Shown here in pieces: positions 29,659 to 30,916 of a stretch of DNA of 64,000 nt. Positions within the stretch are counted from its first letter, which is position 1, and each line of letters opens with the position of its first letter. The stretch is from Eledone cirrhosa (lineage: Eukaryota): contig OZ024743.1 in the NCBI GenBank assembly GCA_964016885.1, positions 274,412,001 through 274,476,000 on the forward strand, in the 5' to 3' direction. A program made the translations under genes and the position numbers. The notes under the pieces were generated by a model, which made no database searches, was not told the DNA's origin, and worked only from the letters and a program-made list of their open reading frames with translations.

Positions 29659-29742
<84 letters not shown>

Positions 29743-29958
29743 TTAGTACCCTGTAACCATTAAGCTCTAAGTATAAAGTACAAATAAATACTGAGCCGAT
29801 CAACAATATATAGTAAGAAACACAGTAAACCGTGTGTCTAAAATTACAAGGGTTGAAAAACCACATATGCTTGAAATATTTAACCAAGAAACAGACAGGA
29901 TGACAAAATGAAAATAAAAATATATTATCATAATACAAACCGTCTCAATAACCATTAT

Positions 29959-30040
29959 ATCTCTCGGACAGATTATCCCTAATCTGTTTCGCCCTGAGTG
30001 TGTTTGTAACAGATAATCCTGGGCTTCATCAGCGAGAGAT
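29959..30040 (-). ncRNA. Type-I hammerhead ribozyme, canonical core, GUC site
   Basis: ATCTCTCG-CTGATGA-A-GCCC...GGGC-GAAA-CAGATTA GGGA TAATCTG-TC-CGAGAGAT. Confidence 0.92.
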
Positions 30041-30425
30041 TGCAATTAAATGTCACAAACACTATTTGCCAACGTTCACACAGAAAGATGAATGTATCAC
30101 CTCGTGCGCCGCCAGTCGAACGTGGTAAGCGCGTATTGAACAGAAATAACAGTCCAACACGCACAACTTAATAGCTCATCCTGTAAGAGAGCCGAAATAT
30201 ATATATGAATTAGAACCCTGTAACCATTAAGCTCTAAGTATAAAGTACAAATAAATACTGAGCCGATTAACAATATATAGTAAGAAACACAGTAAACCGT
30301 GTGTCTAAAATTACAAGGGTTGAAAAACCACATATGCTTGAAATATTTAACCAAGAAACAGACAGGATGACAAAATGAAAATAAAAATATATTATCATAA
30401 TACAAACCGCCTCAATAACCATTAT

Positions 30426-30507
30426 ATCTCTCGGACAGATTATCCCTAATCTGTTTCGCCCTGAGTGTGTTTGTAACAGATAATCCTGGGCTTCATCAGC
30501 GAGAGAT
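30426..30507 (-). ncRNA. Type-I hammerhead ribozyme, second tandem copy
   Basis: Identical to 29959-30040, 467 bp away. Confidence 0.92.
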
Positions 30508-30916
30508 TGCAATTAAATGTCACAAACACTATTTGCCAACGTTCACACAGAAAGATGAATTTATCACCTCGTGCGCCGCCAGTCAAACGTGGTAAGCGCG
30601 TATTGAACAGAAATAACAGTCCAATACGCACAACTTAATAGCTCATCCTGTAAGAGAGCCGAAATATATATATAAATTAGAACCCTGTAACCATTAAGCT
30701 CTAAGTATAAAGTACAAATAAATACTGAGCCGATTAACAATATATAGTAAGAAACACAGTAAACCGTGTGTCTAAAATTACAAGGGTTGAAAAACCACAT
30801 ATGCTTGAAATTTGTCATCCTGTCTGTTTCTTGGTTAAATATTTCAAGCATATGTGGTTTTTCAACCCTTGTAATTTTAGACACACGGTTTACTGTGTTT
30901 CTTGCTATATATATAC

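Follow-up and report, generated by a model that had tools for sequence, protein, structure and literature searches.

The window, a stretch of 64,000 nucleotides from Eledone cirrhosa (GenBank assembly GCA_964016885.1, contig OZ024743.1, positions 274,412,001 to 274,476,000 of the forward strand), contains a tandem array embedded in (TA)n, for which TRF reported a period of 467, 2.3 copies, and 98% matches at 29730-30811 (Table 1). The two full units differ at 6 positions, with the ribozyme motif spared, and they are followed head-to-tail by a 138-nt partial unit and then by an inverted piece (30812-30912) that is the reverse complement of unit positions 67-167, with 100 of 101 nucleotides identical. 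The unit has a GC content of 36%, and an ORF check of it yielded no meaningful frame. The TA run between the units is a retained, target-like spacer at one of the fixed 3' ends, and the inverted piece that caps the array represents the second arm of an insertion of PLE type. The initial annotation, which had described a 467-bp repeat inside (TA)n capped by an inverted piece, was borne out on both counts, and its concern that the tandem might be an assembly artefact was removed because dozens of further loci show tandem and inverted layouts of the same kind.

Table 1. Coordinates of the 467-bp repeat locus and its features, numbered from the first nucleotide of the window
Feature	Position	Strand	Remark
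(TA)n target, left side	29356..29739	.	TRF
Full unit 1	29740..30206	-	29740 is the "long" fixed 3' end; includes TA spacer 30198-30206
Full unit 2	30207..30673	-	TRF and unit alignment
Third unit, 5'-truncated	30674..30811	-	Ragged 5' end of the main arm
Inverted second arm	30812..30906	+	Ends at the "short" fixed 3' end (30906)
(TA)n target, right side	30907..31403	.	TRF array at 30906-31403
72-nt "tail"	29740..29811	-	Bounded by the short (29812) and long (29740) fixed 3' ends
Type I hammerhead motif 1	29959..30040	-	Predicted cut 29967/29966; extra A between A9 and G10.1
Type I hammerhead motif 2	30426..30507	-	Identical to motif 1; predicted cut 30434/30433
Hairpin 1 (GCTC..GAGC)	29764..29796; also 30231-30263, 30698-30730	-	15 nt after short end; pair probability 0.98-0.99
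Hairpin 2 (GCTC..GAGC)	30174..30192; also 30641-30659	-	14 nt after long end, in next unit; pair probability 0.93-0.98
Predicted blocker strand	30051..30062	-	Pairs with ribozyme loop 2 (30000-30011)
Predicted blocker strand, second copy	30518-30529	-	Pairs with 30467-30478

Elsewhere in the window, an inverted, 5'-truncated copy of a Hydra-type PLE occupies 9200-13977, with its short end in TA at 9200, remnants of reverse transcriptase (RT) and nuclease at 10276-11870 (minus) and 12531-12926 (plus), and a minimal hammerhead near 9240-9300 (minus). Frames of a Ty3/gypsy-type LTR retroelement (gag-like, protease, and RT-RNase H-integrase) were recognized by eye from the ORF list at 18555-22521 (minus). 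An exon-like frame at 25941-26114 (plus) showed weak similarity to the MUN region of Unc-13D (E 0.029), and 61 of the plus-strand frames, when tested, gave no Pfam host domain. A tRNA-like Rfam match at 4909-4981 (minus; 36 bits) has an unpaired acceptor stem and is probably the head of a SINE. Other hammerhead motifs of the PLE-end type are located at 8045 (+), 32319 (-), 38156 (-), 38646 (+), 62371 (+), and 3249 (-), and at least eight hammerhead families were observed in the genome.

Each full unit carries one hammerhead, and both motifs in isolation fold into an 8-bp stem I, a 4-bp stem II closed by a 26-nt loop, a 7-8-bp stem III, and GUC (-24.5 kcal/mol). The core and stems were confirmed manually, in agreement with the earlier claim of two identical type I hammerheads on the minus strand, and the predicted cuts reproduce the proposed 467-nt spacing. 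The same motifs had been called perfect; the core is CUGAUGA followed by an extra A ahead of stem II and is not consensus-perfect in that sense. An extra base between core positions 9 and 10.1 is described as a conserved trait of PLE hammerheads in PMC4209133, the older subfamilies of the repeat have U at this position, and A and U are the bases given as tolerated there in a viroid hammerhead (PMC3705267). The suggested Rfam check returned no hammerhead at the gathering score, the sole hammerhead hit being HH9, whose 15.6 bits (E 1.4) fall short of the cut-off of 52. Rfam miRNA matches were rejected as the hairpin formed by the inverted arm, and a second, plus-strand hammerhead near the spacer was rejected for want of a CUGAnGA core, the stretch corresponding to minus-strand hairpin 2.

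A search of the 3.0-Gb genome with the unit produced 1,464 first-look candidates, and 40 of these, when scored, contained 50 near-full matches at 96-100% identity. The exact core pattern had 229 matches in the genome and 0 in the control. Subfamilies of 467, 469-472, and 451-457 bp were distinguished, forming a series from about 75 to 100% identity in which the older group spans ∼75-94%; judged from these matches, the unit is a dispersed, young family with older subfamilies. The locus set comprised 92 loci (49 merged plus 43 more, with L132 removed because it duplicates L131), the divergent L125 was excluded from the counts to give n = 91, and 30 further loci of the older group were examined beside them. 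None of the copies fetched (92 loci plus the 30 older ones) continues into an ORF of its own; the unit always being the terminus of a coding PLE is what the initial annotation had named as refuting its reading. The short non-coding unit, with at least two consecutive copies that each hold a complete type I hammerhead, has the make-up of a retrozyme, as had been proposed, and its multiple dispersed copies, low GC content, (TA)n flanks, and absence of framing LTRs are those of a non-LTR retrozyme; an ORF combining RT and GIY-YIG, as in an autonomous PLE, is not present inside the unit.

No promoter of the tandem locus was found. A snRNA-type promoter was considered and rejected, in that among 16 comparisons with U2 upstream regions one reached 2/200 shuffles, and this was lost in the older subfamilies; the U2 snRNA genes themselves form a tandem array with a period of ∼2.2 kb at G000:C3:307349256-307453739. 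In four sequencing runs of unknown type only variants of the family were seen, and no inference on expression was made from them. Several other tandem families were encountered. A second retrozyme-like family with units of ∼466-469 bp (L018 2258-3177, L053, L140, and L150) has a minimal hammerhead with a palindromic stem III and no GCTC..GAGC hairpin motif, and at L018 the opening 33 nt of the 467-bp unit are joined to the 5' end of this second family. Further TA-embedded, non-coding tandem families of ∼420-500 bp were noted at L181 2580-3400, L236 8500-9900, and L146 1300-2200, of which the L181 family is a distant relative (64%) of the part of the unit downstream of the ribozyme.

The ends of the insertions were analyzed for all arms of at least 45 nt, 140 in the 91 loci. 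The 3' ends of 136 arms stop at one of two fixed positions (73 at a long end and 63 at a short end 72 nt upstream, with 4 elsewhere), the 5' ends are scattered, and an inverted arm is present in 49 of the 91 loci. The insertions thus combine 5' truncation, partial tandems, an inverted arm, and a one-sided tail in the layout of a non-autonomous PLE. According to Craig 2021 (10.1101/2021.04.23.441226), PLE insertions comprise partial tandems, an inverted 5'-truncated copy, and a one-sided tail, and in an anole PLE two internal starts of reverse transcription bound the tail (PMC11167929). The insertion layout of the family also identifies the ribozyme strand as the RNA strand. Constant 3' termini, combined with ragged 5' termini and inverted arms at TA sites that are dispersed, are marks of reverse transcription, and mobilization of the element by a PLE-type mechanism is very probable. 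That the unit is mobilized in trans by a PLE, as originally suggested, is supported as likely by the PLE-type ends and inverted arms, with no coding copy among those fetched.

The same arms bear on the nature of the template. The predicted cut site is crossed by 112 of the 140 arms, and at least twice by 25 of them; 0 of 140 arms end within 3 nt of it and one within 4 nt. The sample leans toward ribozyme-bearing copies; in a subset of 23 loci, selected solely by their last 64 nt, the cut site is traversed by 23 of 35 arms and is the endpoint of none. Because the arms read through the cut site and none stops at it, the cut linear monomer is unlikely as the template, and these endpoints point to a circle or an uncut multimer as the RNA that was probably copied. 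A circle is plausible but putative, and we rate it at roughly even odds as the main template. Comparison of adjacent units within one arm, which covered 10,761 positions with L125, L146, and L148 left out, revealed 12 shared rare variants in 10 loci versus 0.1 expected by chance, along with 100 private variants. The shared variants would fit one monomer copied repeatedly, as well as local conversion or homogenized parents. Marker comparisons between adjacent units were discordant in 28 of 212 cases, many at recurrent sites. The two longest arrays, L148 with an ABAB pattern of units and L146 with six identical units, look like DNA-level duplications, and the use of long arrays as proof of a rolling circle was rejected on account of this resemblance. 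Since L146 and L148 apparently grew at the DNA level and 28 of 212 markers were discordant, rolling-circle copying is not proven.

A short motif, GCTC-loop-GAGC, lies 12-16 nt past each of the two fixed ends, and these are its sole two sites in the 467-nt unit, compared with a background of 0.87% of window positions; the motif is short (4+4 nt) and was defined after the ends were seen. The hairpin stems are kept in the older subfamilies and the loops change. Hairpin 2 is located beyond the long end, so that a lone unit lacks it unless the unit is in tandem or is a cut-to-cut monomer or circle. The candidate partner is a PLE family (P0001) with an 821-aa open frame that contains DKT, CxCX5C, and a C-terminal nuclease, with a hammerhead in the pLTR and insertion into (TA)n; no Pfam match was obtained for it. 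(TA)n insertion is part of the definition of the Hydra clade in Craig 2021, and by the criteria given there the sequence features of this family place it in that clade. It has at least 64 scored matches at 99-100% and dozens of intact copies. In this family the short end is followed at 12 nt by ACTC..GAGT and the long end at 9 nt by GCTC..GAGC, the first pair of the hairpin being exchanged between A-U and G-C among the Hydra-type families and the 467-bp unit. A second Hydra-type family (L153) has the motif after both ends, and in a third the first of the two is present, but solely with a long loop of about 70 nt. In the predicted fold of the main Hydra-type family, hairpin 1 is paired in a different register and hairpin 2 does not form. 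The motif is absent after the end of each of the two non-Hydra families checked, the Neptune-like family and the L157 family. The Neptune-like family is young, with intact 796-aa frames that include RVT_1 and GIY-YIG, and it also ends in TA; a crude scan found no hammerhead in it. The family (G000:C3:92123500-92133400, L236; L192-L220) has a kilobase-long, microsatellite-like 3' region and an open-frame remnant upstream.

BLAST detected no significant homology between the 467-bp unit and three Hydra-type families and one Neptune-like family; with the Hydra pLTRs the unit has the short 4+4-nt motif at both ends in common. At one locus (L152) a Hydra 3' UTR is fused to the 467-bp unit, sense to sense, with 5-nt microhomology; this fusion is ambiguous and may be a DNA-level join. 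Two other chimeras with Hydra sequence (L099 and L158) proved not to be sense template switches. On the basis of the motif comparisons, a Hydra-type PLE is probably the partner of the 467-bp element. A 564-bp tandem family in TA was also observed at L146 5800-7330 (G000:C2:364758300-364759830), in the center of a palindrome of the 467-bp family. Each of its two ends is followed by a GCTC..GAGC hairpin, and an upstream segment is similar as well. No CUGAnGA core was found in it on either strand, and it is possibly a ribozyme-less Hydra passenger.

Each hammerhead can fold in isolation, but within 211 nt of natural context the ribozyme fold was predicted to be 6.4 kcal/mol worse than the fold with the blocking helix, and stems I and II had predicted probabilities of at most 0.02 in both the monomer and the circle. 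These predictions weaken the expectation of the initial annotation that the full stem III should allow monomeric cleavage. An alignment of 38 copies likewise has the 12-bp blocker helix as its consensus fold, and the monomer fold was better than 100 of 100 shuffles (z -4.05). Covariation was not above that of shuffles either for the ribozyme stems, which are 96% paired by conservation, or for the blocker helix, which is 91% paired. We conclude that the conserved helix is predicted to block the ribozyme. None of the 36 subfamily substitutions, each present in at least 5 loci, falls inside the ribozyme, which makes up 18% of the length (p 0.0007); this test is partly circular in that an exact match to the core served to select some of the loci, and the base immediately beyond the tested span carries one marker. 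Singletons are found there as expected from length (47 of 245). The avoidance of the motif by subfamily changes supports the view that selection may act on the ribozyme.

The class to which the repeat compares most closely was defined by Cervera & de la Pena 2020 (PMC7229834), which reports circles in coral, mussel, and axolotl and names PLEs as likely drivers. Like the metazoan non-LTR retrozymes treated there, the 467-bp unit is a non-coding, tandem type I hammerhead element with under 45% GC and a strongly self-paired monomer, dispersed as monomers to short multimers in a genome with co-occurring PLEs. Its length slightly exceeds the 150-450 bp quoted in that paper and is within the 51-972 bp quoted in Li, Clavereau & Pollet 2026 (10.64898/2026.07.22.740005). 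It differs in that its ribozyme is predicted to be self-blocked, its stem III is 7 bp, and it is known here from DNA alone; in the Discussion of PMC7229834, most animal retrozyme circles are described as not self-blocked, and self-blocking is reported for viroids and plant retrozymes and, among the mussel circles, for some only. The Li 2026 preprint ties vertebrate retrozymes to pLTRs, states that the mechanism of mobilization is open, has no mollusc among its listed classes, and reports cleavage in 1 of 9 dimers. In a squid genome paper, the passage on hammerheads gives a count of Rfam hammerheads only.

Like the unit, Hydra-clade pLTRs as characterized by Craig 2021 insert into (TA)n, have two fixed 3' ends with a hammerhead upstream of them, and form 5'-truncated arms, tandem as well as inverted, with a one-sided tail. 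Hydra-type pLTRs further share the RCTC..GAGY motif after each end and the extra base between core positions 9 and 10.1 (PMC4209133). Unlike them, the unit has no ORF, no alignable DNA homology to those examined, and a full stem III in place of the short palindromic one attributed to that clade; its 72-nt tail compares with the 30-40 bp quoted for PLEs. The anole Poseidon PAc (Frangieh et al. 2024, PMC11167929) is similar in that two internal starts downstream of the hammerhead define the tail, the target is AT-rich, and no ends occur at the cut site. PAc is autonomous, however, and its start lies in a stem-loop that is AC-rich and has no homology to the target, whereas both starts of the 467-bp family are at TA-like stretches just upstream of a hairpin. 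Our literature search found nothing on the 467-bp family, a link between Hydra and retrozymes, or the hairpin motif, and the family may already be catalogued in Repbase/Dfam. From its sequence organization, we assign the repeat to the known non-LTR retrozyme/non-autonomous PLE class, with a named candidate partner.

The reading we favor, with a probability of about 0.7, is that the window locus is an insertion of a non-LTR retrozyme, likely copied into (TA)n by a Hydra-clade PLE reverse transcriptase-endonuclease. In the proposed mechanism, the tandem locus would be transcribed on the ribozyme strand, and the 12-bp helix between upstream sequence and loop 2 would compete with the ribozyme, such that cutting is partial and a ligated 467-nt circle stays closed. 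The Hydra protein would bind the hairpins and nick TA DNA, and reverse transcription would start inside the RNA, just upstream of either hairpin, often with one start per target strand to produce the inverted arm and one-sided tail. Copying would read through the cut site, the template being a circle or uncut multimer and not the cut linear monomer. The more specific proposal, that a putative self-locking 467-nt circular RNA is the template of the Hydra-clade RT, with hairpin docking, an obligatory tandem or circular topology, and rolling-circle renewal, is tentative, and we would sooner doubt than assert it in this complete form.

For the same element and partner, an uncut linear multimer may instead be the template, with the ribozyme mostly idle or trimming precursors, the arrays renewed by DNA-level duplication plus nested insertion into the TA spacer, and the circle irrelevant. 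We give this version somewhat less than an even chance. The anole PLE used mainly unprocessed RNA as its substrate in vitro (PMC11167929), and in the Li 2026 preprint no cleavage was seen in vitro for 8 of 9 Xenopus retrozyme dimers. The predicted blocker helix, the DNA-level expansion in L146 and L148, and the few loci in which variants are shared by position across arms (among them C2:212124173 and L159) are all in keeping with it. The avoidance of the ribozyme by subfamily changes argues against an idle ribozyme, as do the rare variants common to adjacent units in 10 loci, which are most simply explained by one monomer copied repeatedly.

A different mover, belonging to another PLE clade (Neptune-like, Naiad, or Poseidon), would make the hairpin likeness to Hydra a coincidence or a matter of old ancestry. 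The young Neptune-like family with intact frames ending in TA is one such candidate, a (TA)n bias is common to several clades (Craig 2021), and many PLE families are present in the genome, of which few were examined; the absence of the motif from both non-Hydra families checked and the L152 fusion, though the latter is maybe a DNA-level join, make this explanation unlikely. Far less probable is that the repeat spreads at the DNA level as a detached pseudo-LTR or minisatellite, or that it is the terminus of a coding PLE that escaped notice. Li 2026 proposes that PLE termini are amplified locally as DNA, and ∼120 loci were inspected of roughly 1,500-1,900 first-look candidates. The end statistics, with their signature of reverse transcription at dispersed TA sites, already largely refute this possibility, and the lack of an own ORF at any fetched copy and the graded subfamily series speak against it as well.

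Insertion by a Hydra-clade PLE is our preferred account of the 467-bp element. The findings add insertion-level evidence for retrozyme mobilization in an invertebrate, in the form of PLE-type ends and read-through of the cut site, together with a short end signal that the family shares with one PLE clade. Since the genome also encodes a candidate enzyme that is intact, the enzyme and the template (circle or uncut multimer) of retrozyme mobilization become testable together. If a circle does serve as the Hydra template, this would supply the missing enzyme and signal of an animal retrozyme and explain why it is organized in tandem, and it would define a portable signal for the unstudied Hydra clade that is common to several passenger RNAs in the genome.
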